Shown: positions 2-23,074 of the stretch, piece by piece
How positions within the stretch are numbered: position 1 is the first letter of the stretch
How the letters are laid out: each line of letters begins with the position of its first letter
Origin: Candidatus Altimarinota bacterium
GTDB lineage: Bacteria > Patescibacteriota > Gracilibacteria > BD1-5 > UBA2023
Length of the DNA stretch: 46,113 nucleotides
Direction of reading: 5' to 3'
Assembly: GCA_043780775.1 (NCBI GenBank)
Contig: JAYWCE010000131.1
Coordinates: forward strand, 1 to 46,113
Program-made: the position numbers and the translations under genes
Notes under the pieces: generated by a model
Told to the model about the DNA's origin: nothing
What the model saw: the letters and a program-made list of their open reading frames with translations, nothing else
Databases searched by the model: none

Positions 2-164
2 AGAGTACTCCTGGCCAGTTCTCGACACAGTGACTGGTGGCGAGGGCTCCACCTGGGAGCTCACCGATGATGAGATTCGAGAGCTTGTATCGGCTTGCGT
101 ACATCCCAGCTGGGAGTCATGCAGATCCTGCACCGATGATGATTGTGTCGTAGACTTGAGACAT
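2..164 (-). CDS. trxB: Thioredoxin-disulfide reductase, N-terminal 54 codons only (gene runs off the window edge)
   Basis: ATG at 164 (minus). MSQVYDTIIIGAGSA[TGA]LPAGMYASRYKLSNLIIGELPGGALATSHCVENWPG. This is the FAD GxGxxG fold, with its third Gly encoded by the TGA at 117..119, plus the TrxB-typical VENWPG motif. Confidence 0.8.
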
Positions 165-215
165 AGAAATTAGGATAAAAAATAATGAGAATGAGTCTCA
201 TTATATGAAAAAGAG

Positions 216-242
216 AAAAAAGACAAGTTTTTTGTCTTTTTT
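216..242 (-). terminator. Rho-independent terminator-like hairpin downstream of the bPH-like gene (A/T-flanked, potentially bidirectional)
   Basis: AAAAAAGACAA-gtttt-TTGTCTTTTTT: an 11-bp stem, 5-nt loop and a T-rich tail on the minus strand. Lies between the bPH gene stop (284) and the trxB start (164). Confidence 0.55.
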
Positions 243-283
243 CTTTCCAAGATGGCTTTATAATGGTCGATATGACAACTCTA

Positions 284-832
284 CTATAGAGTTGGTGTTT
301 TTGCTGGGACATTGTGATGGGCTCGATACTCGCTGATGATTGTATTGATACGATTTCCATTCTCTACGGGATTCGGAGCATAGCTGATTATCATATCTGA
401 GTTCTCACTCGCCGTATGAATATGTATATGTCCATAGTGGAGAATTGTTTGCAGTATTCCATTAACTTCAGCATTAACCTCTTGGACTCGGTCCAGACCA
501 CACTCACTCACTCTCCTTGAGAGTGATGAAATTTGATCAATACCAATGATCCGTTGATCAGTGATAATAAGGAGGTCGAGCTCATTGTTGATCCATGATA
601 AGAGAATAAATGTGAGAAATAGCATCCAGTATACGCTCAATCAGCCCCAGAATATCGCAGTACCAAATATTGTAATGAGAGTCACATTCATTGTTAGAAC
701 AATGAATGTGGTTACTATGAGCATCAATAGATATCCTATTTTGAATACAAAAACGATCCAATGACGATGAAGTAACATAAGGAGATGTTCACCTGCTCGT
801 ATTTGCGATGGGATTTTTAGGTTTTCGAACAT
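284..832 (-). CDS. Membrane protein with bacterial PH-like (bPH_2 / YdbS-YdbT-like) domain
   Basis: 183-codon frame, open only if the TGA at 638..640 is read (it joins track ORFs 641..832 and 284..640); real stop is TAG. GEHLLMLLHRHW, then two hydrophobic helices, then ITDQRIIGIDQ...GILQTILHYGHIHIHTA. This is the layout of bPH_2 membrane-flanked domain proteins. Family call is from motif memory only. Confidence 0.55.
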
Positions 833-1368
833 GTGATATGGGGTGGTTTGAAGTATATAGGAGAGATACGATTCTCTATTTGTTTGACGGCAAATAGACG
901 AGTTATATTGACTCTATCCTCTCTGTATTGTATGGATTTTGTATCTTCTGTCGAGATCATATCTGAGAATATCCCTTCATAGGCTCATATTGGAAGGAGC
1001 TCCTTCGCTATGCTGATAACTGAGTCACCCTGTCTGATGAGATATTCTCGTGGATTGGCCTCGATGATTGGTAGGTTCTCACTCGTGATGAGATCAAAAA
1101 AATGACACGACTTCACGATGATAGCTCTTGTATAGGTGAGACTATTGATCGAGAGTGTGACAACTCGCATGAGTGTGAATGGACCTGGCCCCGTGACGCA
1201 CCAGATCTCATCGATCCCATATTCATCGACAATATCGACAACTATCCGTGGAAATGTCGACGCCGTGTCGAGATTTTTAGCGAGAGTTTTTGTGATAGTT
1301 TGTTCTCAATCAAAAATTAGAAAGTTGATCTCAGGAGTGAGTGGATTGATATAGAGGATGGATGACAT
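817..1368 (-). CDS. tsaB: tRNA threonylcarbamoyladenosine (t6A) biosynthesis protein TsaB/YeaZ-like
   Basis: ATG at 1368. ...IDEIWCVTGPGPFTLMRVVTLSINSL matches the TsaB GPG(S/P)FTG(L)R motif. One internal TGA. The standard-code stop (TGA, 985..987) is read through to TAA at 817..819, adding 56 residues. Overlaps the next gene start by 16 nt. Confidence 0.7.
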
Positions 1369-1377
1369 AATTTTTAT

Positions 1378-2892
1378 TTAGCTACCACGATAGGAGAGTG
1401 CCTCGAGAATATGGCGAACTTCGACAGTTGGCGAACTATCAATATCGGCGATGGTACGGGCAACGCGGAGTATACGATAATATACTCGAGTCGATAGCTT
1501 TAGCTTTTCTGTCGATGATATGGCGATCTTGATTCCATCTTGGCTGATATCTGCGAGCTGCTCGATCTCGACATTCGACATCTCAGCATTGGAGTGGATG
1601 CGTTTTCCTGCGAATCTGGTATGTTGCATTTCTTTGGCTTTCATGACTCTCTCCTTGAGCTCTCGACTCGTTTGTCCAGATCGTTTTTCTCAGAGTTCAC
1701 CTGTCTTGACCCGTGGCACCTGGATGAATATATCGACACGATCGAGGATGGGCCCAGAGAGACGAGATCGATATTTGTCGATCGCCATTGGCGAACAAAC
1801 ACACGGCTTCTCAGGATCACCCATATACCCACAAGGACATGGATTCATCGCACCTACGAGGGAAAAACGAGCTGGATATCGACAGGATTGATTGACACGG
1901 TTGATCGTGATCTCGCCATCTTCGAGAGGCTGGCGAAGTGTTTCGAGTATAGATTTGCTGAATTCGAGGAACTCATCGAGAAATAGTACTCCCTTGTGTG
2001 CGAGTGATATCTCACCAGGTCTCGCCTCTCTACCACCACCGATGATCGATGCCTCACTCGCTGTATGGTGGATCACTCGGAATGGACGATCGACAATGAG
2101 TGGGAGATCCCGAGTCAGGAGCCCTGCTACGGAATATATTTTCGACAGTTCGATCTGTTCCTCGAGTTCCATATCTGGGAGGATTCCTGCCATGGCTTTT
2201 GCTAGCATTGTTTTACCACTTCCTGGTGGTCACTGCATCAAGATATTGTGTCCGCCAGCAGCAGCGATGAGGAGGGCTCGCTTCGCATGTTCCTGTCCGA
2301 TGATGTCTGAGAAGTCGGGTGAATAGATTCATTTCTCATTTTCTACAGGGTCTGGTCGGACTACTCATGCTGGGATAGGGGTATCTCCAGTTAGGATATC
2401 GACTGCATCGGCGAGACAGGCAATGCCAATCACATCGATATTAGGGATCACTGATGCCTCGAGGGTGTTATCGATGGGGAGGAATATTCGCTTCATTCAT
2501 AGTTCTCTCGCGAGTATCGCTGCTGGGAGGGCTCACTGGATCGGTCTCACGAGTCCATCGAGAGCGAGCTCCCCGAGAAAGAGCGATTCTAAAACTATAT
2601 CTGTCCGAAAATCTATATCCTTGCCCAATATACCGAGGGCAATCGGAAGATCATAGATGGGTCACTTCTTCCTCAGATCAGCTGGTGCGAGGTTCACCGT
2701 GATACGGGCCCCAGCCGGGAAGCTATATCCAGAATTCTTCACCGCACTGCGTACTCGCTCTCGACTCTCCTGTATTGCTGCATCACCGAGTCCGACGACC
2801 GTGAACTGTCCCATCCCTGTGATGACATCAACCTCGACCTCTACGAGATGACCAGATATGCCGTAGATGGATGAGGAGAAGAGTTTTTGCAT
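1378..2892 (-). CDS. comM: Mg-chelatase-like AAA+ ATPase ComM/YifB (competence-associated)
   Basis: 505 codons with 7 in-frame TGA. N-terminal Lon-like/ChlI domain ([29 protein letters not shown]). Walker A [TGA]PPGSGKT, with the TGA at 2230..2232 on the minus strand. Walker [25 protein letters not shown] zinc-ribbon-like motif. C-terminal [14 protein letters not shown]. Ends in TAA. Confidence 0.9.
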
Positions 2893-3043: not shown

Positions 3044-6028
3044 ATGGGCAGTATGAACAGATTCTTCCTCAGTATCGTTGCGATATTCACTACATTCCAG
3101 CCTGTTCTCGCGATCAGTGTGAGAACAGCTACTCGCTCAGAAAAGGCGACTCCATCACTCTGGTCTACGCTCTGGGAGAGTTTCATGTATATTGCTGAGA
3201 ATATCGTCAATATCCTCCTCGCGGTCATCATCATCTGGATTTGTATCCGACTGATGCGACTCACCTATGAGGTGATGATGACTCCCCGTATGCGATATAT
3301 GAAGGTGACCCTTCCTCGTGCCGACTCCAAGCTGGATAAGGAGCAAGATACTAAAAAAGACTTCAAAGAGAAGATCGGTATCATGACGCTCTTCTATAAG
3401 AGTGTTCACAAGATATCGACGATCAGTGCGTGGAATACGATCCTCAACTTCATCTTCGCTCATGCGAAGATCTCCCTTGAGATGATCTACGCCAATGGTC
3501 AGGTTCATTTTTATCTGGCGGCGTATCAGGAGCATATGACGCTGATCACGCAACAGGTGACCTCGAACTATCCCGATGCTGAGGTAAAACTGATCGCGAA
3601 AGCCGATCTCCCAGAAATCAAGCCACGATGATATGCGCTCGAGGCTGCGTCTATAAGCAAACGCAATGATGATATCTATCCACTCAAGACCTACAAGTAC
3701 TTCGAGGATGATCCACTCTCGTCATTTACCAACAACTTCGGTTCACTCAAAAAAACCGATGTTGCAGCCATCCAGATAGTGATGAAGCCACTCGGGCACA
3801 GTTGGAATCGCAAGGCTAAGAAGGCGGCCGGCCTCGTCGCGAAGGGAGAATACAAAAAAGGACTCAAGAATGGATTTTTTATGAGTGCTATTGGATTTCT
3901 CCTCACGCCGATTTCTTGGTTTTTCTCTCGATTTATCGCCAATGAGGAAACCGCATCGAACGCACCAGGGGCGAGTAGTGGTGACTCGTACAAGATATTC
4001 AATCAGGCAGAGACTGAGGCACAAAAGATGGTGGGGGAATCGGCTGGACAACCAGGATTCGAGGCATCGATCCGCATATTGGTTTCATCCGATACCCGTG
4101 AGTCGGCTCATCAGGGGCTCCAGTCCCTCGTGGCTGCGACCTCTATTTTTACTGATGAATACAATAATCAGCTCGACAATCCGCAGATGATAGAGGATAT
4201 CTTGCGTATCCTATTCACGCCGCTTCGTTATTTTGCATTTGGGTATCGCCTCATCGGGATTTTCCAGAAGATCTCTCGATTCTCCTCTGATGAGATGTCG
4301 ACGATATTCCATTTCCCTGATATCAAGTATAACAAGTCCCCGATCATCGCGTGGCTCGACTACAAGATGCTCTCGATCCCACAGAATCTGAAGTTCCCAA
4401 AAATCCCACTCATCCTCAAGGACTATAAGCGGGATGCGTCGGGCTCCATTTTCACCTCTGATGGATCGCTCTTGCGGGTAGATAAAAATAAAAACCTCTA
4501 TCGAGATGAGAACAAGAATCTCCAACTCACGGGTGGTATGCCTATCTCTGTATTCTCAGAGGGAGCCGATATGGGCAAGCCGGTCGATGCGGGCAAGACC
4601 CCTGTACAGATCGATGCTCAACGAATGCTCGGGGGATTTCCTCTCTATAAAGAGGCAGTTTTGATGGGATGGAATGAATATCGCAATATGAAGACGCCGA
4701 TATATTTTGATCGCAAGGATCGCGGACGACATCACTATATCATCGGTAAGTCAGGAGGATGAAAGTCAGTACTCATCGGATACCTGGCTCGTCAGGATCT
4801 CTGGAATGGGGATGGACTCTGTGTGATCGATCCGCATGGGGATCTTGTTGAGGATATCCTCGCCTTCACGCCCAAGGAACGGGCTCAAGATATGATCATA
4901 TTCGATCCATCAGACTACGAGCGACCACTCGGACTCAATATGCTTGACCTCATCGCGACCGAACCAGCACTGCAGGCAATAGAAAAAGATCGAGCGGCAC
5001 TCGATGCCACCTCGATATTCATCAAGATGTATGGGGATGAGATATTCGGTCCTCGAATCCAACATTATTTCCGCAATGGATGTCTCACGCTCATGGATGA
5101 TTCGGAGGATGGTGGTACACTCATCGATGTACCACGACTCTTTGTGGATGAAGCATTTATGAAATATAAAGTCTCAAAAATCAAAAATGTGATGGTAAGA
5201 GCGTTCTGGGAACATGAGTACGCTCAGACTGGAGATCGTGAGAAGCAGGAGATGATACCATTTTTCTCTGCGAAATTCGGACCATTCATCACCAATACGA
5301 CGATGCGAAACATCATCGGTCAGACGAAGTCAGCATTTAACCTGCGGAAGGTGATGGACGATCAGAAGGTACTCATGGTAAATCTCTCCAAGGGAAAAAT
5401 CGGAGATCTCAATGCTCAGCTTCTCGGTTTGATAATGGTTTCCAAGATCAATATGGCGGCGATGAGTCGAGCGGATATGCCGGAGGAGCTCCGCAAGGAC
5501 TTTTATCTCTATGTAGATGAGTTCCAGAACTTTGCAACGGATACATTCGGGGAGATCCTCTCCGAGGCTCGCAAGTATCGACTCGCACTCATCATGGCCC
5601 ATCAGTTCATCGCCCAGATCGGTGGCAATGGAGCCAAAAAATGAGATAAACCGTCGATCAAGGATGCAGTATTCGGGAATGCGGGGACGATCATGTCGTT
5701 CAAGGTTGGAGCGGATGATGCAGAGTATCTGGAAAAAGAATACGCACCGCTCCTCTCGCAACAGGATATCATCGGTATCGCGAACTTCACCACCTACTGC
5801 AAGCTCAACATCGACAATGCGACCACCAGGCCATTCGATATGAAAACGCTCTGGGACAATACCTATAAGAATGCTGAGGTCTCAAAGATCATCAAGGAAT
5901 ACTCTCGAAAAATGTATGGGCGTAAAAAAGAATATGTTGATATGGAACTCGAGGCTCGCATGGGGATAGTCCGTGAAGAAGCAGACTCAATAGTTCCAAT
6001 CACTGATACCAATAAATCAACTCAATAA
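3044..6028 (+). CDS. Type IV coupling protein-like ATPase (VirD4/TraD/TraG family, DUF87/HerA-like P-loop) with long N-terminal membrane-associated region
   Basis: One frame of 994 aa joins track ORFs 3020.., 3779.., 4823.. and 5693.. through TGAs at 3629, 4760 and 5642. N-terminal hydrophobic segments. [11 protein letters not shown][TGA]KS is Walker A GxxGx[11 protein letters not shown]. Walker [29 protein letters not shown] is a TraD/TraG-type C-terminal motif. Start could be GTG 3020, ATG 3044 or ATG 3053. Confidence 0.7.
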
Positions 6029-6039
6029 TTCCCATTATT

Positions 6040-7248
6040 ATGCTTCACCAAATCCTCCCCATTATTGTTTCACTTCTTGTTATTGTGGATGGCTTTATTC
6101 TTTTTTGATTTTGAGAATATGGATTTATGAGTGACTATGTAAATTCAAATACGATTCTTGCCTCGATTCTGATTATTATTCAATTTCCAATACTTTATAC
6201 TATCCTGTATAAGGCGTATATCGGCCCCATTCAGCTATTAACAAGGGATATTGCTCGTTTTATGACGGGTATCCAAGAGGAGCCACAAATACAACCAAAT
6301 GCATGGAGCGGAGGAATGAATCAGGTTATTATATTTTTTATTAAATCACTTCAGATTCTACGAGTATTCAAACAAGAACTCCGTGATGGTCGCAAGCTCC
6401 GATCTGAGGTTGAGATCGCGAGTGAGATCCAGAAGCAGACACTTGATTACCAGAATATTATAGTACCAGGACTCACCATCGCTATGGCGACAACTCCAGC
6501 ATCAGAGGTTGGTGGAGACTCGCTCGATATTATCCCTGGTCGTGATAATAATCACTATATCTATATTGGTGATGTCACTGGACATGGGGTACCATCAGGA
6601 TTCGTCATGATGATGGTCAATGCTCTGGTATCTGCATTCTCCCTCTCTGAATCCAATGGCGCAAACATCCTTGCACAGACAAATCTGATTCTCAAACCTC
6701 GTATCAAACAGAATATGATGATGACGGCAGTGATGCTCCGTTGGGATGCTACAGCCAAAAAAATGTACTATACAGGTGCAGGACATGAATTTCTCCTCGT
6801 ATATAAGACTAAGGAAAATAAGGTTTATAAAGTTAAAAGTGGTGGTGTTGCACTTGGTATGGTTAAAGATTCTACTAAAATTCTCAAAGAACAACAGATT
6901 GCTTTTGATCCCGGAGATATCATCGTACTCTATACTGATGGTATCAGTGAGGCAAGATATCGCTCTGAACAGACAGGTAGACTCTTTGGTGTTGATCATA
7001 TTATAGATTCGCTCATGTCTATAAATATCAAAAATCCAGAAAATATATTTCGCCAACTTACTATCGATCTCTCTGCATGGATGGGGTATAAACATAAACA
7101 GTATGATGATATCTCTCTCGCTGTTGTGGGATATAATAGTGATTGACAAGAAGCACAAACTCTCCTCGATATCTATAAGCATATAGATAGCACCAATATA
7201 ACTGAATGGAACTGGTGACTCAAAAAAATAGAACAATCTGTAACATAA
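6040..7248 (+). CDS. Membrane-anchored PP2C-type (SpoIIE/RsbU-like) serine phosphatase
   Basis: GGDSLDIIP...HYIYIGDVTGHGVPSGFVMMMVNALV...IIVLYTDGISEA are the SpoIIE/PP2C metal-binding motifs. Hydrophobic N-terminus. The standard-code stop TGA at 7144..7146 is read through to TAA at 7246..7248 (+34 aa). ATG 6040 adds a hydrophobic helix through two TGAs; alternative start is ATG 6127. Confidence 0.8.
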
Positions 7249-7260: not shown

Positions 7261-9210
7261 ATGTCTCTCCCTACTCTCACAGAACTCATCACCAAAAACT
7301 ATACCTGAGATGTTGAATGACTCGAATCACTCACTCCAGTATCTTTTTCTGGATCTCATAATACCGTTATATCGCCAACTTCGACACCTTCGCCAAATCT
7401 ATCAGTATCACCGAGTACTGCTGTATCAGTGCCATCATATATCGATGCTGGAGATCGCAAGCTGACGCGAGAAGAGGCGATGGAACTCAAGGATACTGAG
7501 AGGGAATACAATGAGTCACTGGCATTCATCAAGGATGCGATTGCTCCTGCGATGATGCGGATTGACCCAACCAAGCTCCAAATCGGAGATACCTATGTTC
7601 GGACAATATTCACCTATGCCTATCCTGATGTGCTCGAGGGGAATTGGCTCTCACCGCTCATCAACTGGGATGTGAAGTTTGATATCTCTATGTATATCTA
7701 TCCAGTTGATTCAGCTCGTGTGATGAAGTTTCTCCGTAAGCGACTCACTCAACTCGGATCACAGCGAGCTATGAATAATGGCAAATGACTCATCGGAGAT
7801 CCCCATCTCGATGCTCAGATCCAAGATGTTGAAGAACTCCAGCAATATCTCACGCGTGGTCAGGAGAAGTATTTTCACTTCTCACTCTATATCACGACCT
7901 ATGCAGAGAGTGAAGATGAGATGAAAAAACTGACGAATATGCTCGATATGATGCTCGCAGGCCGCAATATCCTCACAAAGCAAACATTTCTCAGGGCAGA
8001 GCAAGGATTCATTGCGACGGGTCCATTTGCTCGTGATGAAGTCAATGTGTTCCGCAATATCTCAACAAAGGGTCTCTCTACTACATTTCCATTTAGCTCC
8101 AACTCTCTCTCTCAGGATGATGGGATATTCTATGGTATAAATACTCATAATAAGTCACTCATCATATTCGACCGATTCCGTTCTGAGAACGCCAATATGT
8201 GTGTATTTGCCAAGTCAGGATGATGAAAATCGTTCGCCGTGAAACTCGAGATCCTCAGGGCCCTCATGATGGGGACAGATGTCATCGTCCTCGATCCAGA
8301 GAATGAGTACAAAGCACTCGTAGATACGGTCTGAGGTACGTATCTCAATATTTCCCTGAATTCCAATGAGAAGATCAATCCGTTCGATCTCCCACGTTCA
8401 CTCAAAGATAGTGAAACCCATATTGGGGATCTTCTCCGCTGAGCTATCGTGAATATGATCGGACTCCTCAGGCTCATGCTCGGTATCATCACTCCGAATG
8501 AAGAAGCACTCCTCGAGAAGGCGATCATCACGACCTACTCACTCAAGGGCATCACGATGGAGGATGACTCTATCGATGGCAAAGAGATACCACTCCTGAA
8601 GGATCTCTACTCGGTTCTCGAAACGATGGATGGAGCTGTTTGACTCGTAAATCGACTCGAGAAGTATATATTCGGAGTGTTTTCTGGAGTATTCTCTCGA
8701 CCGACGAATGTCGACCTCAAGTGATGACTCGTCGTCTTCTCTGTACGAGACCTCGATGATATTCTCCGCCCGATCGCTATGTATATCCTCCTTACCTACG
8801 TGTGGAATGTAGCGAGATCGAGTGAGAAGAAGCGATTCCTCGTCGTCGATGAGGCATGGAATATCATGCAATATGAGGACTCAGCGAAATTTCTTTTTGG
8901 TCTTGTAAAAAGAGCTCGAAAATATGGACTCGGGGTCACGACGATCACCCAGGATGTCGAGGACTTCATGGGATCATCATATGGCAAGGCGATCGTGACT
9001 AACTCATCGATCCAACTCCTTCTCAAGCAGTCACCTGCATCCATCGATGTCCTGCAGAACGTATTCAAACTCACCGAACAAGAGAAATATATCCTCCTGA
9101 ATGCCTCGGTTGGTACAGGACTCTTCTTCGCGGGAGGTGAACATGTGGGTATCGAAATACTCTCATCCTATTTCGAAGAGAAAATCATTACCACCAAACC
9201 AAATGTATAA
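7261..9210 (+). CDS. VirB4/TrbE/CagE-like type IV secretion ATPase
   Basis: 649 aa assembled from 5 track ORFs through 10 in-frame TGAs. Walker A CVFAKSG[TGA][TGA]KS = GxxGGGKS (TGA doublet at 8221..8226). VIVLDPENEY...INPFDL. Walker B RFLVVDEAWNIM. RKYGLGVTTITQDVEDF. Ends in TAA. Confidence 0.8.
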
Positions 9211-10108
9211 TCCTACTCAATCACATAGGGGCTCTGCCCTTATCGTCGGGCTCATTATCGTCGTGTTACTGACGATCTTGACGACCAGTTTTCTCGAGAA
9301 AATCCTGAATCTTGGGAAGACGAGTGGTGGTATCGGTAACTCTGCTCAGTCCTATTATCTCGCTACAGGACTCATCGAGGAACAACTGATGGATGGCCTG
9401 ATGACCAGAGCAGAACCATGGAAGATACCTACAAAAATAGAATGAACTGCTGCTACATGACGGACACTCACAGCATATACGGGTGGCACGATGATGCCTG
9501 AACAGTGAGCATGAGGACTTCCATGAAAATGAAATAGCTCATTTGACTCTAACTGGAATATTATCGGTATAGGTGAACCAGTTCAGATCGTTATTCCTGC
9601 TGGAATTATTGATTGGAGTACTGTGATTTTTCATTTTAGAGTTCCTAGTATCCTAGGTGCAGTTAGCAATACTGGGAGTTCTAGTAGCTCAGGAGTTATC
9701 CTTTGGACTTTTGGATATTCATGAGCATCACTCTACGCAAGTGGAGAAACAGAGATTTTTCAATGAATCCATATCACAAACAATACACCGCTTCCTACAC
9801 TTACTAGTAAAAATGGACTTACAAATACTGGAGTATCGATGCAATTTTGAAACTTTTATAGTGCGTATGGATCAAATTGTGCCTGATTTCAATGTACCCT
9901 GAAGTTATCAATGATACGCTCATTTGTGACAGATTTATGACAATCATTCCCATTTCTTGAATACCAGATTAGTTTTCCTGTAACAATACCGAGTCAATAT
10001 ATGATCATTGACTCGTCAGCCTATGTGCTCGGATACCTCCGCTCTCGCCAGGTGCGTATACCACAGATTACAACCAACACTGCTACTGACTTCGCTATTC
10101 TCCAATAA
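9203..10108 (+). CDS. PilX-like / pseudopilin-type protein (N-terminal hydrophobic pilin-like helix)
   Basis: 301-codon frame, open only under code 25 (11 in-frame TGA). MYNPTQSHRGSALIVGLIIVVLLTILTTSF...AQSYYLATGLIEEQL resembles the PilX_N motif (QRG-aL-hydrophobic helix ... A-yyhAEaGle). ATG overlaps the VirB4 stop by 8 nt. Stop TAA at 10106..10108. Confidence 0.5.
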
Positions 10109-11872: not shown

Positions 11873-11880
11873 TTTTTCAT

Positions 11881-12261
11881 ATGATTGCATTAATCAACAA
11901 ACAACCAGATATAAAAATATACATTTCAGAAGCACAAGTCTGATCTCTTTTGACTTGAGATACTATCACAGGCATGTCATGGTCTCATATACATAAAGTT
12001 GCCTCAGAGCTTTCATTAAAAATAAACACAACTATAAAAGATCCAACTCGAAATCTTGAATGGACAGAAATTGAAATATCTTCTGATAATGGACAAGAAA
12101 TACGCAAAGAATGAGCAATACTGTGACTGCGGTTCGGAGGAGCACCCAAACTCAGTATCGTTGTACGAGAGAGAATATCGGAACTCAATATTTGAAAGGA
12201 TGATAAAGATCAATTACAGTGGTGATTAGAGAGCTTAGAAAGCGCATTTCAAAATGACTAA
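11881..12261 (+). CDS. Hypothetical protein (126 aa, visible only under code 25)
   Basis: ATG at 11881; 6 in-frame TGA; TAA at 12259..12261. Fills the gap between co-directional genes, whereas the standard-code ORFs here (11985..12188-, 12016..12213-) are antisense to the operon. No family recognised. Confidence 0.4.
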
Positions 12262-12267
12262 CTATTT

Positions 12268-13458
12268 ATGTATTCGCTTCGTGTTCTTTTTTTCTCACTT
12301 CCACTCTACTTCTCTCATGTATTCTCACCACTTGGTCTGACTATAGGAGAGAGTTATTCGTTCGAGCGATACAAGGTATATTTCTTCCTGATCCTACTCT
12401 TCATTGCATGTATAGAGTGACTGATACGTTATCCATGTCGTATTTGGGATATCGTACGCAAATATGCTCATACTATTGCTCTCTTGCTCGTTATTCCCAT
12501 TGTATCGGCACTCTATTTTAACTGATCTATCGATATGGCCTGGTTGCTTGGAAGTTATGAAAAACACCATGGGTACCTCTTCTATAGTAGTATTCTCTGG
12601 CTCATTCTCCTCCTGATAGCGAGCCCGAGAGAGCAACTGAGACAATATATCTCATGGAGCACTGCAAGTGCTATTCTTGTTGCCCTGATCGCTCTCTGAG
12701 AGCATATGGGTGGCATATTCGATATCTATGGGAGATCGGATATGCTATCGATGTATCCTGGGCGATCATCGAGCACGCTCGGCAACCCGAACTATGTAGC
12801 TGGGTACCTACTTCTTTTTATTCCATTGCTTGCTTGGATTCGTTCTCCTGAGAGATGGATCGTACTCGGACTCCTATCACTCGCCATAGTGACAACAGGG
12901 AGCTATATTGCCATTGCTCTACTCGGACTCTATTTACTCTACTCTCTGCTTCGTTATGTTGGTATTTCAGCTGTGATTTCGCTCGTTGGGGTTCTGGTTT
13001 TTGCTCTAGTTGGTAGCTATATCGGGAGCCTCTATCTCGATTCTGAGAAGATACTATCACTCACGAGTCGGTTCGTCCTGATGCGAGAGAGTATTTCTAT
13101 GATGCTGCGAGAGCCGATTTCATTTTTGATCTGATTCGGTCCTGATTCAATAGTATCTCATTTTACTACTGCTCGCTCGCTCATCGTAGATGCCTATTTT
13201 CCTCCTACAGGCCTGATCGATTCCTCTCACAATGTATTTCTCGATATACTATTCCAGTATGGGATATTGCCACTTACTCTACTCGGATATACTCTGGTTA
13301 GTCATTGGAAAAACCAAAAAGAAGAACTGCAGACTGCAATTCTTCTTGGAGGAGCATTTCTCGCACTCAATGTATTCGTATTGGTACATCTCATGGTGTT
13401 GGGTTTGATCGTGATAATATCTGCTGATTACCGTTGACCTCGCAAAAAGTCGATATAG
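12268..13458 (+). CDS. Wzy_C / O-antigen-ligase-like polytopic membrane protein (possible protein or cell-wall glycan ligase/polymerase)
   Basis: 396 aa, 5 in-frame TGA, many hydrophobic helices. SSSTLGNPNYVAGYLL and SSHNVFLDILFQYGILPL match the conserved GNPN-hA and HN-hL-h--E-G motifs of the Wzy_C family. TAG at 13456..13458. Confidence 0.6.
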
Positions 13459-16400
13459 TTGCGTAGGGTAGCCTGCTCGAGTGATATGTATGTGTGATAT
13501 TTCCCTGTGTTTCATCTTACTTGCCTCTTTTGTTGTTCCATCGAACGCAAGATAACAGCATACTCTATTTTCCTTGTTTCGATACTATTTTTGTCAGATC
13601 GGATTTGCATGATGAGTGGGAGAATCTGCTGATCAAAAATTGACTCAGAAGAGAGACTCAGATCTATATTTTTTAAAAACTTGGTAATCGATGATGTAGT
13701 AAGTCGAGCTGGAATGAGTACCGGTACCTGTAGCTGTTGTATGGTTACTCAGGTTTTTGCTGGTACCCCTAGAGTCAAGCTAGCTGTGACGGGACTAAGA
13801 AAGGATACACTACTATTTCCTCCTCAGCCACCACCTGGTCCACTCGATGACCCTCATGATGTAGGAGGTATGACAATTGGCACTAGCGGTGCCCCTACAG
13901 CAAAAAGTGAGAAGTGATCTGTCGTGAATGTACAGGTTTCGCCTGTTACGATACAGATAGCAATCTGAGTAAATGGAGTCGATGAATCAGGTGATCGATA
14001 GACAGGAAGTGTAGATCCATTCGTCCCACTGACCCGTATCGAGATCGTAGCGAGTCCTCCAGAGAGTATGAGAGAAGTAGTCTCATTACCGATCATATAG
14101 ATCGATTGGACTCTTGTACTCGTTGCTCCTAGTGTGATCCCTGTTGCTGATGAAATGAAGATCGGTGACTGGATGATCCCATCCCATGCACCAGAGCTCG
14201 TGATCGTGAGTCATCAGAGAGGTATCGTAGCTGTAGCTCGACTCGCACCGCTCTCTGTGAGGATGATCGTCTGAACTCCAGTACCATAGGTCACACCGCT
14301 CATAGTACTCCCAGAGAGATAGACTGATCCAGATGATGATACATTGCCCGTCCCCGTCTGTGGGATGAGACGAGGAATACGGAAGGAGTAGGTAGGAGAC
14401 TCTGGAGACGAAAAGAGTCGTCCATGAGATTGCATCCTGAAATAGTATGTCGTATCTGGTGTAAGATGAGTGAACTCAAATTGATTAGCACCAATTCCAT
14501 CTTGTTGGAGATAGTATCATTGAGTCTGAGATATATCCCCCAGTCATCCCATACACATAGCAAATCAATACATATGTCATCTTGAGGTGTATTGGTCAAG
14601 TGGGGTACTTATACTACACCCTAGTTCAATAGCTCTCCGAGCATACTGGGCCAATACCCCAGTTTCAGTGATAATATTGCTATTACTGCCAGTATCTGTG
14701 CTTGCTATTTCTCCTATGCTACTGAGGAGTATAGCATAGATCTCACCATGAGTTGCAACACTACTGGGACGGAATGTACTTGTTGTTGTCGTTATTATAC
14801 CAGCTTCAGCGAGAGCCTCGATATAGCCACAATTATCTCAAAGATTGGATCTTACGTCAGCAAATATATTTCATTGACATCATGTGGGAGTATATCATCA
14901 TATTTTTGCTGCGATCATGGCAAGTTCTGCCCGAGTGATAGTGTTTTCGAGGAGGTATCAGTTCTCCGTCGCTTGTACAGAGATGATTCCATTGGCTGCG
15001 AGCGTCTGTGCCGCTCAGAGGTATCCTGATGCTCATTGGAAATCAGCATTCTTTGAGATCGAGAGATATTGTGAGGCATCCATATTGGCAGGATTTGTTT
15101 TGACCTTGATCTTGACTCCAGATTCACCTGAAAGAGTGAGTTTATCGAGAGATATAGTAGGATGTTCGAGGGCTTTGAGTATTCCTATGATATTGAGTCG
15201 TTTACCTCCATATATCTGGCTTATAAGTTGAGGCTTATCGTCAGCTCCATAGAGGATCGCATTCTTGATATCCTGCACACTCGCTGTCGGTGAATAGCTC
15301 CATGCGAGAGCCGCAGCACCAGCGACATGTGGTGAAGCCATGGAGGTGCCATCATAGCTATCATAGCCACCTGAAATAGACCGATCTATCTGGATATCTT
15401 TTACAAAACATCCATAGTTTGGTATTCCACTTTCTGTAGTATCTACACTATCTGTGACCCATTTGAGTCTGATATCAAATGATCCTGTAGCATTATAGAG
15501 ATCTGTGTTGGCGGTGACACGATATTGTGCGATAGCTCCAGTGTGTCCATCGATATTGAGCCATCGACCCGATGGCTCATAGTAGTTGAATCATTCATTG
15601 ATCCAATCCACTCGACTATAGAGACCTCCGTTGTTACTGAGGAGTATATCAATCTGATCATCTGTAGAGGGTGTATCACACCAAGTTGTGATGAGTACCT
15701 TAGCGACATCTCGATTGGGGTTGGCGATAGTTTTCTCGATATATGATGACTCTCATGATACATACGGCGTACGCACATCCGCCCAGAGCACAGAAGATAT
15801 ATCCATCACTTCACCTGATACGACAGCATGGGGTCGTGTGGTCCAGGTATTTGGACTGGATCAAGCTTTCCTCGTCCATCCATTGGCATAACTGATGAGT
15901 TCTGGGGCACCTACAATACTCCTAATAGGGACACTACTATAGATATTGACTCCTGGTGCTGCGATCTGGACTGATTTTGTCCCATAGTTAGAGAATGATG
16001 CGAGGTTATCATTTTGATCAGTAGCTCCTACAGAGATGACATTCTGCAGAGCAGGGATGATGTCTTCTCATGAGAGTACAGCTCGCTCTCTATCGATAAT
16101 AGTTTCTCATGATACGACCGTATCACTTCCGAATCCTGCAGGGAATGATTTATATGTACCATCACTATTCATACCGCTATTACCTGCTGCTGCCACGAAA
16201 AGTCCAGGAAAATCTTGTATAGCCCCATACATGAGATAGTCAAAATCTGACTTTGTATGTGTCGATCTCATGATACCGAGACTTGCATTGATAACTCTGG
16301 CTCCATTTTTGGCAGCAAAATTGATACCACGGATGATATCGGAGGTTGTACCTCCATATGGACTGAGTACCTTTACTGCCATGATCTGTACATTGAGTGC

Positions 16401-17501
16401 AACACCTGTTACACCATCACTATTGCTCACTCCTCCGATAGTACCAGCAACATGTGTCCCATGTCTCATATCATCCATTGGATCGAGATCATTGTTTGTG
16501 AAGTCATACCCATGGATACATCCTCCGAGGGTTGCCCCAGTATCTGAGAGACAGTTGGCACCATCCCACATATGTGGTGCGAGATCAGGATGACGATATG
16601 CGACACCCGTATCGAGTACCGCTACGATCACTCCAGATCCGATCTTGTTCCCCGCATAGGTGATCGCCTCAGGATAGTCGATATCGGCATCAGGAGTACC
16701 AGTGATACCATTGACAGATTGTCCTTGATTATCCAGAGCCCAGAGTTGAGGAAATCCAGAATTGACAGTTGCTTGTGTCTGATAGACAAAGTTTCGTTGT
16801 ACATGTTCAACTCGAGGATCTGTTTTGAGTTCTTCGATCTTGTCATCGATAGCTTGCTCGAGTACTGGATCTACGGAACCAGTATGAACAAAAGAATCTG
16901 CAATACTCATTGATGAGACCATATCGATGGTAGCAGGATTGTCGATCTCCATAACGGCGATATTTTGCTCACTGATCGTCTCAGTCGTCTTGAGATCATG
17001 TGTATTTTCAACCTGATCGACCTGATATTGTCCAATATATCCATCAATATCTGTCTTGAACTGTACGAGGATCTGTGCCTCAGGATGGGTATCTGTCGGG
17101 TGTGAGGACATCTTCAGAGATGGATCCGAGAGGTCCAGTTCACTCTCTCGATCATTGATCGATCCAGTAGTAGTGATGCTCTCTGTATCTATGGGAGGAG
17201 TTATTGAAGAGATGATATTCTCTAGTATCGTAGTGCCACTACTAGTGGCACTATAACCAGAGCTTGTGATTGATCCTGTGTCTGTCGTTACATCTTCACT
17301 TCTCATGGAGCCGTCTTTCGAGGGAAGATGGCTCGTAGTACCAGAGTCCGTGATAGCTACTGGTAGAATCTCTGTGATCACTACTGGCACATCGATGTGG
17401 GGAATATCCTCTGCGAAGATGATCTGTGATGGAACGAGGATAGTAGAGACAAATGCTGTGAGTAGGATCTCAGTTGTTAGGATATGATAGATATTTGGCA
17501 T
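13428..17501 (-). CDS. Secreted subtilisin-like serine protease (peptidase S8) with SLH-like repeats, FN3-like module and C-terminal extension (1357 aa)
   Basis: Signal-like N-terminus. Catalytic triad motifs VIVAVLDTGV (Asp), HGTHVAGTIGG (His) and GTSMASPHVAGAAALAWS (Ser). Then ...ITRAELAMIAAKI.. / ..FADV...GYIEALAEAGII...THGEIYAIL, which are SLH-like. FEFTHLTPDTTYYFRMQS is FN3-like. A Gly run is partly encoded by TGA. 23 in-frame TGA, all after codon 464. Frame checked codon by codon on the mirror copy 28614..32687. Stop is TAA. Confidence 0.8.
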
Positions 17502-17509
17502 GGGGGGGG
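17502..17509 (-). repeat. C8 homopolymer (G8 on the plus strand) abutting the S8 protease start codon
   Basis: catGGGGGGGGt on the plus strand; on the coding strand it reads ...attaCCCCCCCCATGcca. A G/C homopolymer of this length stands out in AT-rich sequence. Confidence 0.9.
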
Positions 17510-17562
17510 TAATATGTAGATATATAGTCTTATCCTGCCATATTTATTCACTTTATACAATA

Positions 17563-17594
17563 AAAATCACTTGACTATTAGATCAAGTGATTTT
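17563..17594 (-). terminator. Rho-independent terminator downstream of the sigma-r4/HARE-HTH gene
   Basis: AAAATCACTTGA (17563..17574) pairs with TCAAGTGATTTT (17583..17594): a 12-bp stem and 8-nt loop. On the minus strand the hairpin is followed by TTTTTATT. It sits 17 nt past the stop codon at 17611. Confidence 0.7.
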
Positions 17595-17610
17595 ACGGAT
17601 AGTATGATTC

Positions 17611-18651
17611 CTATTTTGATTGGTAGAGATTGCGTCCAACTCGTTCCACATATTTCTTGTTCTGGAGATTCATATAGATCGTAGTGATCTTAACTTGACG
17701 AACCTTGAGCACACGATCGGTGATCTCTTCTGTTGAGAGGGCAGCACCTGCCTTTTTGAAGATCTCGAGGATAACATCGAGCACAGTCCCATCCTTATAT
17801 CCCCACTCTTTGAGTACATAGATACCACGACCGATAAGTACAAATTCATTATTACGAATGAGTTCATTATGAATTGTAGATGTTTTTACTGGTTCATTGA
17901 ATCTTTCTGTTATAGCTTCCGCAATATCGAGAAAGTGCAGAGGCTCTTTTTTCTTTTTGAGGACATAGATAGCCTTATCTTTCAGGGTTGCTGGATTGAG
18001 AATTTTCCATTTTTCGAGACCGATATATTTCTCCTCTCCTTTCACGATATCGAGGAATATATCCATGATTGAATCGAGGATGATATTCGAGAGATTGCCG
18101 AACTGGGCAAAGAGAGCGAGGTGGATGGTATCGTAGAGCACTACTGCTTCCATTATATCTCCCTTCTTTTTGAGAATCTTGAGAGCCTCTTTGTGTACTG
18201 CTTCTACCATTTTCTTGGTCACTTCTGCGAAGTGAAAATAGGTATTCGTTCCAAGCTGGGGCTTGGATCTCTGGAGGTTGTAGTCAGCCTGGAGAAGTAC
18301 ATCGATGATATTATAGTTGAGTGATCACTCAATGCCGATATCAGCGATTATGGCAGATATGAGCCGCTCTCGAGTCATGATACCGCCATGAATCTGGAGA
18401 ATCTTTTCTCCAGATTCTTGGATCTTCATGAGGGGGCTCGTTCGCATGATGCGACCGATTTTTTTGATACCGACATCCTCGATTTGACGAACTCGTTCAC
18501 GGGTGATACCATAGGTATCACCGATCTCTTGGAGTGTCTCTCGTTCTCACTTGAGCCCGATACGACGGATTATCACAGAGCGTTCTTTCTCAGCGAGAGA
18601 GGAGAGAATCGTCTCGAAAGTATTCTGGATCTCGGTTGCTACTGTAGACAT
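17611..18651 (-). CDS. Sigma-70 region-4-like HTH fused to HARE-HTH (RNA polymerase delta-like) domains
   Basis: 346 aa, 2 in-frame TGA. N-terminus LAEKERSVIIRRIGLK[TGA]ERETLQEIGDTYGITRERVRQIEDVGIKKI is a sigma-70 r4 HTH. Later LHFLDIAEAITERF...TIHNELIRNNEFVLIGRGIYVLKEWGY and LSTEEITDRVLK...YMNLQNKKYVERVGRNLY are HARE-HTH-like. Stop is TAG. Confidence 0.6.
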
Positions 18652-18736: not shown

Positions 18737-19249
18737 TTAAATTGGGAGGCTCATATTCTTTTTATTTTTTTCATCATCAGTAAGTATTCAACGATATTCG
18801 AGGAGTTCATCATGAGTTTGATGGTCTATATAATATATATCTGTATTGGTAGCCTTGTTTGACTGAGAAAAAAAATGGGCAGAAATAAGAATACAAATCA
18901 CGGATGAGAAGGCTATCTTGTAGCCTATTCCTAGTGTCGCTCAGTGGGCAGCTATTTGTGTATTATATATAGTATTGATAATGATCAGATTAATAAGCGT
19001 CGAGAGAAGTATGCTCGTAATAAAAACAATGGCTTGAGTATCGGAGAGCCTAAACGGCACAAGCGTCCTTATATATTCTTTTTTAGTATGAGAAAGCAGA
19101 CAAAAAGGAATTATGACCATAGCAGTGACTATGAGATATCCAATATAGAGTGAATATGATGAAAATGCGTAGTATTGTTCAATGGCCCCATCAAGATACG
19201 CTAAACGGAACCATGGAAAGAAAATGGATGCAAAAAGTATACACTCCAT
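18737..19249 (-). CDS. Hypothetical polytopic membrane protein (170 aa)
   Basis: ATG at 19249. Several hydrophobic helices. TGA at 18941..18943 and one further TGA are read through to TAA at 18737..18739. No family recognised. Confidence 0.45.
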
Positions 19250-19540
19250 TAAGATGATTGCACGTCCTGAAAGGGGAAGTTTTCCAGCTCAAATATTGAT
19301 ACGTGATAAAAACAAAAGAATTTTTGTTTTTAATTTTCGATTTTTGGAATTTGTAATATAATCAGACATAGGCGTTAGGATATATATATTTTCTTTTTTT
19401 TCAAGAGATATGTTACAAAACATATGGATACATATTGGTTTAGTTTTTTTTTGATATATTCATAGGTCTTCTAGTGGACTTATGTCCATTTTTTTCGGTA
19501 AAAAAATCCCGATAATATCAGAACAATACTCCATTACACA

Positions 19541-19549
19541 TGATATAAT
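19541..19549 (+). promoter_or_regulatory. Extended -10 promoter element candidate upstream of the prepilin-type gene
   Basis: TGaTATAAT (TG at 19541..19542, TATAAT at 19544..19549), about 90 nt upstream of ATG 19642. Poor -35 (gaacaa). Confidence 0.3.
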
Positions 19550-19641
19550 CTCTATTGGCCCTGCTTCATTCGTTCAGAAGCCAAATGCCATAAAGCTTGG
19601 ACGAGCCTTATTTGTTCCACTACTTCTCATTTCTCAGCTCT

Positions 19642-20844
19642 ATGCTCGCAAAACAAAAGACCCAGAATAATCGTGGATTCACAATCCTTGAGCTGATGAT
19701 TTCTATGACACTCTTTGCGATGATTATCACAAGCGTGATTCTCGCTGTCGAGAATTTGTCGATTGCTCGTATTAAGACTTTGAATCGAGTTGCACTCCTT
19801 GAGGAGCTTTATTTTTTCTCTGAAAAGATTTTCACGAGTATTAAAGATGGTGGAACCCTTGATTATGAGGAATACTGGAATCGTCAGGCGGTATGAACTA
19901 TAACCGGGAGTTGACACTATCGGGATCCTACAGGGATAGGAAACTATGGGAAGAATGGTATTCTTGCTACTACAACATACGGTACCGGAATATATCTCTG
20001 TAGGTCGAATAGTGCGGCAAGCATGGGAACAGGATGATGCCTCAGAGATAATAACAATGGAGGCAATGGGTATCTCTCTGGAGTAGTGTTGCCACCCAAT
20101 TTTAGTTGATCATATCAACGATATGGAGAGTATCTCACTCAGTTCACCGACTACAATGGGAATGCGGATGATGATCTCTGAAACGAGGATAGCGATGCGA
20201 GTGGATCTATCATCGGAGATGATGATGATCGAGCTATCGGAGATGTTCCGGGTATTCTCACGGGTTTTATGCAAGAGCTCTATCTCATAGACAAGACAGC
20301 CAAAAAACGAACCTATCTGCGTTGGAATATCCAGCAAGATCCGAATAATACAAGCGTCCCTTGTGCTATCACTACATCTGCAAGTGGTAAGACAATTACA
20401 GGAAGTGGGTGTGTCGGCAATATCCAGGTACTCAAGCTCAAGTGACTCGATATCGGTTATTCCCATTCGGGAGGTACAAACGATATTACTGCCTATGATG
20501 GAATCATTGATACCTGGGTCTGTATAGAAGATGCTCAGTGCAAATGACCATCTGTATGAACTACTGATGAGATCGCAACTGGATCTGGCGATGAGTGGCT
20601 CGATCTCTTTCCGAGTACGATCAATGTTAAAAATCTCTCCTTCCAGATTTATCCGATCAAGGATCCATGGCTCTCTTGGGCTGCTCAAGATTGCAGCGGA
20701 GCTACCTGTATCAGTCCATTCATTCACCCGTATGTTCGGATGAACCTAGAGATGGGTTTTTCTTGGTGAAAAAGACGTACTCTTCGCAATGAAGACCCAA
20801 CAATATCGATAGCAACGAGTATTTCGCTCTCGGACTTTGAATAA
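19642..20844 (+). CDS. Prepilin-type N-terminal cleavage/methylation domain protein (large type IV pilin / pseudopilin-like, 400 aa)
   Basis: MLAKQKTQNNRG|FTILELMISMTLFAMIITSVILAV is a class III (prepilin peptidase) signal, G-F-T-hh-E. 9 in-frame TGA. Several Cys pairs. Asp-rich insert NADDDL[TGA]NEDSDASGSIIGDDDDRAIGD. TAA at 20842..20844. The track ORF start at 19597 is a TTG upstream of the signal. Confidence 0.75.
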
Positions 20845-20858: not shown

Positions 20859-20886
20859 TTGACAAGATCACACTTTTCTATACAAT
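20859..20886 (+). promoter_or_regulatory. Sigma-70-type promoter candidate for rpmH-rnpA-yidC
   Basis: TTGACA (20859..20864), 16-nt spacer, TACAAT (20881..20886). Lies 33 nt upstream of the rpmH ATG. Confidence 0.45.
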
Positions 20887-20918
20887 CCCGAAGCTTTTTT
20901 CATAAAAAATAATCTCAT

Positions 20919-21176
20919 ATGATAGGAAAACTCAAAAAAAGAAAACGACTCCGTGTACACGGATTCCTCGCTCGTAAAAATACAGTAGACGGACAAAAGG
21001 TCCTCCGTGCACGTCGCCGCAAAGGTCGTCATGTGCTCACTGTTAGCTACCTCAATCGATACAAAAATATCAGGGGAAAGAGCAAGCATCATAATGTTGC
21101 TGGTGGTACTGCTCGTATTGTGACTGTTCCTGGACTCACAGAGCGATTTCGTGGTTCCAATAAAACAGCGAAATAA
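20919..21176 (+). CDS. rpmH: Ribosomal protein L34 with an unusual ~40-aa C-terminal extension
   Basis: [43 protein letters not shown] matches the L34 core (KRKR-HGFR-R..T..G..VL..RR.KGR..LTV). The ORF continues to TAA at 21174..21176, giving 85 aa. Canonical position upstream of rnpA-yidC. Confidence 0.85.
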
Positions 21177-21266
21177 TTTTGAGTGATTTTGTTTCTCTGG
21201 TTATAGTATAACTGGATCCGATTATTCGGATTACAGAGTAAGATACAGTATTTGCTATTCCAAAGT

Positions 21267-21632
21267 ATGATCTCTAAAGAATATCGTCTCACAGAACACG
21301 AACTCAGAAAGGTTTTATCTCGAAAGAAACCTTTCTTTTCGTATGTCTGGATCGCGAATACGATGGAGAATAAGGCGTCACATGGGAGATGTGGTATCTT
21401 GCTCTCATCCAAGTGTACAAAGGGAAGTGTGAATCGTAATTACTGGAGACGCAAGTTCTATGATATATCTCTATCTAGTCTAGTTAGACTCCCCATGGAT
21501 ATCGTCCTTGTGCCCAAAAAATGAACTGTTCTCGATTATAAAAACCAAGAACATATTATGGAATTCGAGAAGCATATACGCTTTCTCTATCGAAAAATAG
21601 AAGATGGATACGGCCCGAAAACAAAAAAATAG
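21267..21632 (+). CDS. rnpA: Ribonuclease P protein component
   Basis: MISKEYRLTEHELRKVLSRKKPFFS...GILLSSKCTKGSVNRNYWRRKFYD matches the RnpA pattern (G-h-VSKK-G-AV-RN--KR). Lies between rpmH and yidC. TGA at 21522..21524 is read through to TAG at 21630..21632. Overlaps yidC by 29 nt. Confidence 0.75.
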
Positions 21633-22851
21633 TTTCATTTATTCATTTTCGCTCAAACTCATGGACAAACTCCGTATTATCAATCTCTTTGCTATCGCGT
21701 TCCTCATATCACTGGCTGTGCAATATTGGTTCTTCCCAAGGCCAACGACTACAGCTATCCTCCCTGACGTCTATATGTCCGTGGAGTCTGAGAGTATCGT
21801 CGTGCCAAATATCCCTAAAATCACCCTTCATAATACTACAACGGGCGCCATCACTATCAATCCTTGTGATGATGTCAGTATATCGATAGACTCTCGTCCA
21901 CTCGCAGGAATCAGAGAGACGGCAGCAGCATTTTGTACACCAATTGTAGTTGATTCTAGTAAAACAGCTCATCTCTCATTCAATTCACTCTACAAGGTGT
22001 TCTCGACCCAACCAGGTAAATATATCATAACTATGAAGACATCTGGTGGAGATCGTACTGTGGGATTCATCCTCTCGAGTCCTGGATCACTCCGATCCAT
22101 GCTTTCCACAATCGTGTATGAGCCAATCTATAACCTCTTCGTTGCACTCCTCACTTGGATTCCTGGACACTCACTTGGCTGGGCAATCATCATCATCACA
22201 CTCATCATCCGACTTGTCCTCCTCGTCCCACAGCAACATATGCTCGAGAGCCAGAAAAAACTCCAAAAGATCCAACCAAAAATCAAATCAATCCAAAAAG
22301 AATATAAGGCAGATCAGGTAGTGCTCGGACAGAAGATGATGGAACTCTATAAAAAAGAATGAGTCAATCCGATGGGATCATGTCTCCCACTCCTCATCCA
22401 GATGCCGATCCTCATCGGACTCTATTGGGTGATATCTGGAATCACCGATCCGTCGAATTTGTATCATCTCTATCGTGTATTTGTCAACTTCCAGCCGAGT
22501 AGTATCGTGACGAGCTTTCTCGGACTCAATCTCTCTCAGGTGGGTGGTATTACGGCTGTAGTATTCGGTCTCATACTCGGATTCACCCAGTGGATCCAGG
22601 CCTATATGTCGTTCCACTATACAACCAAGGCAAAAGATCCAAAAGAACCAAAAAAAGAAATCGAACCTGGTTCCGTAGAGGCAGTTCTCGATCCAGAATT
22701 AATGCAGAAAATGATGCTCTATATGCTTCCAGTGATGCTCGCGGTATCCGCATATTTTTTCCCACTTGGTGTCGGACTCTATTGGTTCATTGGAACCCTC
22801 TTTGTGATTGCTCAACAGTGGTATGTGAATAACAAAAAGGATATGAAATAA
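21604..22851 (+). CDS. yidC: Membrane protein insertase YidC/Oxa1 family
   Basis: 415 aa. One TGA (22360..22362) joins the two track ORFs inside ...LYKKE[TGA]VNPMGSCLPLLIQMPILIGLYWVI, the signature YidC motif (NP..GCLP.L.Q.PI...LY). Ends in TAA. Confidence 0.9.
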
Positions 22852-22857
22852 TATATA

Positions 22858-23035
22858 GATTTCTGAAAAACTACGAATCTCTCCGCTCTCAAAAATTTAT
22901 TTCTTAGTGTCCCGAAACGAAGTGAATGAAATACCTTTGGGGTACATTTACTTAGGTGTATACTCTTTCGAATACTTAGACGTATACTCTTTCGAAAACA
23001 TTTTCCTGTCTCGATACTCTTATTTTTCAGAAATC
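22858..23035. repeat. 178-bp segment bounded by a 13-bp inverted repeat (within one arm)
   Basis: GATTTCTGAAAAA (22858..22870) and TTTTTCAGAAATC (23023..23035) are exact reverse complements. They flank the tandem repeats. This pair is independent of the whole-window palindrome. Confidence 0.6.
22952..22999 (+). repeat. Two tandem 24-nt repeats in the non-coding tail after yidC
   Basis: TTAGGTGTATACTCTTTCGAATAC / TTAGACGTATACTCTTTCGAAAAC (21/24 identical). Each unit carries the small palindromes GTATAC and TTCGAA. A third partial ATACTCT follows at about 23014. Confidence 0.8.
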
Positions 23036-23040
23036 CCAAT

Positions 23041-23074
23041 AAAAATCTCTTCCAAGTACTTGGAAGAGATTTTT
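23041..23074. terminator. Terminator-like A-tract / stem / T-tract palindrome exactly at the symmetry axis
   Basis: AAAAATCTCTTCCAAGT|ACTTGGAAGAGATTTTT. Only the left half is independent sequence, so whether a native hairpin existed here cannot be told from this window. It lies 190 nt downstream of the yidC stop. Confidence 0.3.

Follow-up and report, generated by a model that had tools for sequence, protein, structure and literature searches.

The 46,113-bp contig JAYWCE010000131.1, referred to below as the window (the whole stretch of DNA that was analysed), carries protein-coding genes in which TGA does not act as a stop. UGA is translated in these genes as an equivalent of the GGN codons and termination takes place at UAA and UAG only. 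Glycine is by far the best supported meaning of the reassigned codon. The window consists of two mirrored arms, and the genes are described here for the unique arm (2..23057). The tiling of this arm first gave 17 genes, and rpmH and rnpA upstream of yidC were then added, for a total of 19. Each line below gives the coordinates, the strand, the product with its length in amino acids (aa) and the in-frame TGA codons. In the alignment columns and motifs an x stands at a TGA site, as in GksGgxKS.

3..164, minus strand: trxB, N-terminal part of 54 codons, truncated at the end of the contig; Pfam Pyr_redox_2; one TGA (117-119), in the third Gly of GxGxxG
284..832, minus strand: membrane protein with a bacterial PH domain (bPH_2), 182 aa; one TGA (641), column G4 A2 S1 F1
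817..1368, minus strand: conserved 183-aa protein at the tsaB position; no Pfam match; two TGA (985, 1306)
1378..2892, minus strand: comM/yifB Mg-chelatase-like AAA ATPase, 504 aa; seven TGA (1690, 2230, 2329, 2365, 2497, 2533, 2662)
3044..6028, plus strand: VirD4/TraG-like coupling ATPase, 994 aa; DUF87 and TraG-D_C; three TGA (3629, 4760, 5642)
6040..7248, plus strand: SpoIIE/PP2C-type phosphatase, 402 aa, with a Pfam match; four TGA (6106, 6112, 7144, 7216)
7261..9210, plus strand: VirB4-like ATPase, 649 aa; P-loop_TraG and AAA_10; ten TGA (7306, 7318, 7786, 8221, 8224, 8332, 8440, 8641, 8722, 8725)
9203..10108, plus strand: pilin-like protein, 301 aa, with a hydrophobic helix at the N-terminus; no Pfam match; 11 TGA, columns mostly x or G
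10108..11139, plus strand: RluA/RluD-type pseudouridine synthase, 343 aa; PseudoU_synth_2; two TGA (10276, 10339)
11153..11638, plus strand: conserved hypothetical protein, 161 aa, 65-71% identity in the relatives L002 and L003; one TGA (11519), column x2 G2
11881..12261, plus strand: doubtful open reading frame of low confidence, 126 aa, without a homologue in the relatives; six TGA
12268..13458, plus strand: O-antigen-ligase-like (Wzy_C) membrane protein, 396 aa; five TGA
13428..17501, minus strand: large S8 (subtilisin-type) protease, secreted, 1357 aa, with a Pfam match and an SLH-like segment; 23 TGA
17611..18651, minus strand: protein with Sigma70-region-4 and HARE-HTH, 346 aa, with a Pfam match and 93-94% identity in L002 and L003; two TGA
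18737..19630, minus strand: membrane protein, 297 aa; five TGA
19642..20844, plus strand: pseudopilin-like protein with a prepilin N-terminal methylation motif (N_methyl), 400 aa; nine TGA
20919..21176, plus strand: rpmH (ribosomal protein L34), 85 aa; the sole complete gene of the arm without TGA
21267..21632, plus strand: rnpA (RNase P protein), 121 aa; Ribonuclease_P; one TGA (21522)
21604..22851, plus strand: yidC membrane insertase, 415 aa; 60KD_IMP; one TGA (22360)
23058..46113: mirror arm, the exact reverse complement of 2..23057 (position x corresponds to 46115 - x), with every gene copied

A scan of the window for open reading frames (ORFs) points to a stop set of TAA and TAG only. 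With this set the longest open frame grows from 478 to 1371 aa, and the part of the window covered by ORFs of at least 100 aa rises from 83% with the standard stops to 99% once TGA is sense. Freeing TAG or TAA as a sense codon gives no comparable lengthening of ORFs in the window. Each ORF length is present twice because the arms mirror each other. The 19 genes of the arm comprise 7316 codons with 94 in-frame TGA and no in-frame TAA or TAG, at a coding density of 95%. TGA occurs in 18 of the 19 genes. The stops of the 18 complete genes are TAA (13) and TAG (5), with no TGA among them.

An earlier note, made from the letters of this DNA alone, had claimed that TGA as a sense codon fuses fragmented frames into long ones that end only in TAA or TAG. 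The sizes that it gave are exact (1357 aa with 23 TGA, 994 aa with three and 649 aa with ten). The TGA codons that it quoted also lie where it placed them, since 8221-8226 reads TGATGA and the triplets at 4760-4762, 2230-2232 (minus strand) and 117-119 (minus strand) are TGA in the frame and on the strand described. It had further called for a comparison of gene calls under translation tables 25 and 11. Table 25 gives the 19 genes with the coding density stated above, whereas under table 11 they would fall apart into 113 pieces, the median length being 35 aa.

Table 11 calls on this contig and on its relatives give many short ORFs, as would be expected if the code were standard and the TGAs were real stops in a field of pseudogenes or in a sequence full of errors. 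It is extremely unlikely that this is the case. Protein identity to relatives of 89-93% persists past many of the TGAs, and the absence of in-frame TAA and TAG contrasts with the 94 in-frame TGA. The TGA positions are common to dozens of independent assemblies or are swapped for GGN in them. The Pfam domains are also complete: Mg_chelatase, ChlI, Peptidase_S8, SpoIIE, PseudoU_synth_2, 60KD_IMP and P-loop_TraG run uninterrupted and at full length across the TGAs, with extents in ComM of 1-206 of 207 for Mg_chelatase and 1-121 of 121 for ChlI.

The amino acid inserted at TGA was assessed by a codon comparison at the DNA level over 80 genomic loci that encode relatives of the VirB4-like ATPase, of which 53 are recoded and 27 use the standard code. 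The DNA level was chosen because protein databases are contaminated by table-4 mistranslation, and column counts from these databases are set aside as evidence. Loci with a VirB4 identity of at least 61% contain 0-35 in-frame TGA codons in virB4 (only L010 has none) and their long ORFs collapse under table 11. Loci with an identity of 55% or less bear the labels Peregrinibacteria or Saccharibacteria; in-frame TGA is absent from them, and the choice of code makes no visible difference to their ORFs. Opposite the TGAs of the window the recoded relatives have GGN in 40% and TGA in 30%, so that a Gly codon or TGA accounts for 70% together. The standard-code relatives have Gly in 43%, followed by Ala, Gln, Asn and Ser. 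TGA in the relatives stands opposite GGN of the window in 15-21% and opposite TCA in at most 3%.

These columns were also scored with a BLOSUM-based likelihood, in which each column has one vote and the relatives' own TGAs are excluded to avoid circularity. On the recoded-relative columns (n=54) Gly is best by 38.9 nats and Trp ranks 18th of 20. On the standard-code columns (n=11) Gly is ahead of Ser by 2.7 nats and of Trp by 15.8 nats, and Trp is last of the 20 amino acids. The same likelihood assigns CGA, which is abundant in the window, to Arg by 48.6 nats (76 columns) and CGG to Arg by 11.7 nats (21 columns). TGG of the window stands opposite Trp in 68-83%. UGG still encodes Trp, and CGA, CGG, AGA and AGG still encode Arg.

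Solved structures have Gly at several of the TGA sites. These are the Walker A site and site 77 of ComM (8rxd, BchI, Lon), and the second Walker A position and site 358 (8332) of the VirB4-like ATPase in 4ag5 and TrwK. The claim that TGA is a sense codon for Gly is borne out by frames, codon columns in relatives and structures.

A reading of TGA as tryptophan (table 4), as in Mycoplasmatales, Entomoplasmatales and several insect endosymbionts, has some features in common with the present case: UGA is sense, release factor 2 (RF2) would be dispensable and table-4 callers give full-length ORFs. The majority of public protein entries from this lineage show Trp at sites where the DNA reads TGA, and 90 of 120 ComM homologues have W at the TGA column of Walker A. 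Those W are an artefact of gene calling with table 4, and NCBI table-25 entries of ComM have G at this column and contain no Trp anywhere in the protein. TGG lies opposite a TGA of the window in one of 1061 cases, and Trp takes the low ranks given above on both sets of columns. Gly content is 7.5% with TGA included and 6.3% without it; TGA as Trp would double the Trp content, to 2.3%. By what is established for P-loops, a Walker A motif in the table-4 forms WPPGSGKT (ComM) or GKSGGWKS (VirD4-like) would not work. The difference from code 4 is that the residue here is Gly and not Trp, and that a table-4 translation puts false Trp into catalytic motifs. It is highly improbable that TGA means Trp in this DNA.

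The individual sites differ in how well conserved their columns are. TGA 2230 of comM opens the Walker A motif GPPGSGKT as its first Gly; the structures named above have G at this position and the relatives give x7 G4. TGA 4760 of the VirD4-like gene is the invariant Walker A Gly, with GatGtGKS in TrwB (1e9r) against GksGgxKS here, and the relatives give G12 x1. In the VirB4-like ATPase all 27 standard-code relatives have G at 7786 and at 8224 and all have A at 8221; at 8332, 26 of them have G. The first Walker A TGA (8221) is Ala or Ser in structures, and the second (8224) alone is an invariant Gly. The TGA in the GxGxxG motif of trxB corresponds to G in four of the five best thioredoxin reductase structures and to A in one. 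For yidC the column over 80 homologues is K 44, G 24, N 6 and D 3; the E. coli YidC has K, and YidC2 of Bacillus halodurans has G. The statement in the earlier note that all of the TGAs it quoted fall on invariant glycines therefore needs to be narrowed: the structures uphold it for ComM, the VirD4-like protein, the second VirB4 TGA and TrxB, and it fails for YidC and for the first VirB4 TGA.

Other columns are more mixed. The two TGA columns of the protein at the tsaB position are x3 G2 K1 E1 and x5 S2 G1 E1. The columns of the SpoIIE-type phosphatase are variable, and G or TGA is commonest at two of the four sites. In rnpA the relative L002 has TGA at two other sites, where the window has GGN. 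The doubtful ORF at 11881..12261 lies where nucleotide homology to the relatives breaks (11876-12267), and dropping it alters nothing.

The S8 protease is absent from the relatives at this position. The region 13380..17611 is missing in all five of the syntenic relatives that span the site (L002, L003 and L161-L163), in which the Wzy-like gene is followed directly by the sigma-like gene. The best homologues of the protease are from Gracilibacteria, at only 42-47% identity. Variable or lineage-specific regions hold most of its TGAs, and the evidence there is frame continuity and not column identity; at sites 465, 478, 547, 583 and 1226 G (or W by mistranslation) is commonest in close homologues. 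The gene looks like a strain-specific, fast-evolving surface protease that was inserted between the Wzy-like and sigma-like genes.

TGA supplies about 17% of the Gly codons in the window, which has a GC content of 43.5%. Among the recoded relatives (L001-L050) the proportion of virB4 Gly codons that are TGA extends from 2% to 92%, and it falls with rising GC content of the locus (Spearman -0.78, p = 2e-10).

The machinery that would read UGA was sought in the window and in the relatives. About 2.7 kb upstream of yidC, the relative L005 (79% VirB4 identity) has a tRNA whose anticodon is UCA (14873-14948). No tRNA is present in the matching region of the window. The L005 tRNA scores 40.8 bits against the Rfam tRNA model and folds into a cloverleaf with the acceptor stem GCGGGGG/CCCCCGC and U73. 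ARAGORN labels it 'tRNA-SeC', which is the default name for the anticodon UCA. This label is the point in favor of a standard-code genome in which the TGAs encode selenocysteine or undergo programmed read-through. The L005 tRNA differs from a tRNA-Sec in its acceptor stem (7 bp, not 8), its variable arm (short, not long) and its residue 73 (U, not G). The number of sites (94 in 18 of 19 genes) also far exceeds any selenoproteome, and the aligned residues are Gly and not Cys. The probability of selenocysteine or read-through is negligible.

Glycine as the meaning of TGA fits the form of the L005 tRNA. It carries all four features given for tRNA-Gly(UCA) in this lineage, namely G1:C72, C2:G71, G3:C70 and U73 (PMC8629427). 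A search of 1.9 Mb of the relatives' loci for release factors found RF-like ORFs, closest to release factor 1 (RF1), only in four standard-code loci; the recoded loci searched gave no release-factor ORF, a result that is silent on RF2. Loss of RF2 has been reported for the lineage (PMC8629427). As judged from the lineage and not from the window, a dedicated tRNA with anticodon UCA would decode UGA. This tRNA would keep the Gly identity set listed above, so that glycyl-tRNA synthetase would charge it with Gly. RF2, which otherwise reads UGA, would have been lost, also by reference to the lineage, and RF1 would serve UAA and UAG.

Several points weigh against the assignment of UGA to Gly in this DNA. 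There is no tRNA gene and no release-factor gene in the window. The support from standard-code relatives consists of 11 columns and a handful of PDB alignments, with a small margin over Ser. Many of the TGAs, notably the majority of those in the S8 protease (23 in all), are in variable regions that carry little information. Two species labelled Gracilibacteria reportedly keep UGA as a stop (PMC8629427), and therefore lineage alone is no proof of the code.

The relatives place the window within the recoded clade. The nearest loci are from the Gracilibacteria metagenome-assembled genomes (MAGs) GFS_2902, GFS_6367 and GL75_DN_metabat_86, at 90-93% protein identity, and the best matches of ComM are named Candidatus Gracilibacteria, at up to 92% identity. 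Synteny with the nearest MAGs runs from trxB to yidC, in the order trxB, PH-domain protein, tsaB-like, comM, virD4-like, spoIIE, virB4-like, pilin-like, rluD, Wzy-like, sigma-like, pilin-like, rpmH, rnpA and yidC. NCBI files these MAGs under Candidatus Altimarinota in the Patescibacteria group. The housekeeping content of the DNA and its synteny with contigs of 88-95 kb point to a chromosome and away from a phage or plasmid. The window is almost certainly chromosomal DNA of an uncultured member of the Gracilibacteria (BD1-5/GN02, NCBI 'Candidatus Altimarinota') with genetic code 25.

That Gracilibacteria and Absconditabacteria use UGA for Gly has been established knowledge since 2013, and NCBI lists this code as table 25. 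Code 25 of the Gracilibacteria was reportedly described by Rinke et al. in 2013, and the code of SR1 is said to have been described by Campbell et al. in the same year. The earlier note had treated table 25 as established knowledge for the lineage, and the literature agrees (PMC8629427, PMC4032931): UGA as Gly in Gracilibacteria was confirmed by proteomics (Hanke et al. 2014, PMC4032931), and the automated Codetta screen recovered the reassignment in Gracilibacteria and Absconditabacteria (PMC8629427). The reassignment itself is already known, and the window is one more genome of the lineage that gives no new insight into the code. It resembles the Gracilibacteria code in its in-frame TGAs at Gly positions, in having only TAA and TAG as stops, in its closest relatives being of the same lineage and, in a relative, in a tRNA(UCA) that has the identity elements for Gly. 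There is no difference of substance, and the TGA share of 17% is within the range of the relatives.

The earlier note had left the choice between Gracilibacteria and Absconditabacteria (SR1) open. UGA as Gly is common to both lineages (PMC8629427), so an SR1 organism with code 25 would show the same TGA columns. Absconditabacteria reportedly read CGA and CGG as Trp as well, and the same may hold for CGG in some Gracilibacteria (PMC8629427). Both codons align to Arg in this DNA, which leads to Gracilibacteria with plain table 25. Every named close relative is from Gracilibacteria/Altimarinota and none is SR1, and the GC content and the abundance of CGA also speak against SR1. It is very unlikely that the organism belongs to the Absconditabacteria; the Gracilibacteria half of the alternative stands, on the named relatives, the synteny and the Arg codons.

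The code has consequences for public records. Read naively, the W that table-4 translation has put into the ComM column would have spoken, wrongly, against TGA as Gly. The earlier note had expected standard-code annotation to shatter the genes, and this is visible both in relatives and in this contig. The public calls on L161 (ENA k141_2686539) and L163 (GCA_031393905.1) break VirB4 up into about five parts and YidC into two or three, and in one relative YidC is split into 233 + 162 aa. The gene calls of L162 (GCA_014377305.1) are intact. The YidC of this contig is on record as a 252-aa fragment that ends at the TGA and matches residues 1-252 of the full protein exactly. Public translations of this contig and of many relatives are wrong, as table 11 shatters the genes and table 4 writes Trp at catalytic Gly. 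Annotation, homology search and structure prediction in this lineage should use table 25.

The genes between 3044 and 10108 (virD4-like, spoIIE, virB4-like and pilin-like) form a cluster that is present in the nine Gracilibacteria relatives in which gene order was examined. Orthologues of the VirB4-like ATPase at 47-55% identity occur in Peregrinibacteria and Saccharibacteria, and SpoIIE homologues occur in about half of the loci L001-L080. This suggests that the cluster is a common secretion or uptake apparatus of the Patescibacteria. The L34 protein encoded by rpmH has a C-terminal extension of about 40 aa, which is 96% identical in L002 and absent in Saccharibacteria. The exact 85-aa L34 is found on 14 public contigs, tagged Ribosomal_L34.

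The two arms form a palindrome with no mismatch over 23,056 bp, which spans the entire NCBI contig and has its centre between 23057 and 23058. Both ends of the contig are at the same base inside trxB. The fold-back point is 206 bp past the yidC stop, about where the end of a convergent gene would fall. In the relatives L161-L163 yidC is followed by a convergent DUF5665 gene and then by CNNM, NusA and others. A YidC-based metagenome scan found a closest relative of 76% identity and did not reveal the region past yidC in this species. A search of metagenome contigs for an exact 33-mer taken from the arm beside the centre gave no match. Palindromic contigs have been reported as an error of short-read assembly (PMC9455707), and the palindrome is most likely a fold-back artefact of the assembly. 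It doubles every gene in the annotation. If it were real, the palindrome would represent a chromosome end closed by a hairpin, or else a very large inverted duplication that pivots on a terminator hairpin 206 bp past yidC, and either has only a slim chance of being correct. A consensus terminator scan at the centre found nothing, and the hairpin is loopless by construction. Rfam gives only miRNA-precursor matches on the arm, at the palindrome centre, which are a trivial outcome of a long perfect hairpin.

Two further public sequences are related to these observations. The Logan contig SRR23617225_10222669 (L170, 1469 bp) is 100% identical to positions 20885..22353 of the window; on this sequence identity the same organism is judged to be present in run SRR23617225. 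The unrelated metagenome contig Ga0100385_1000037 (165,078 bp; L106 and L108) contains two identical mirrored segments of 12,690 bp and is a second palindromic contig in a public assembly.

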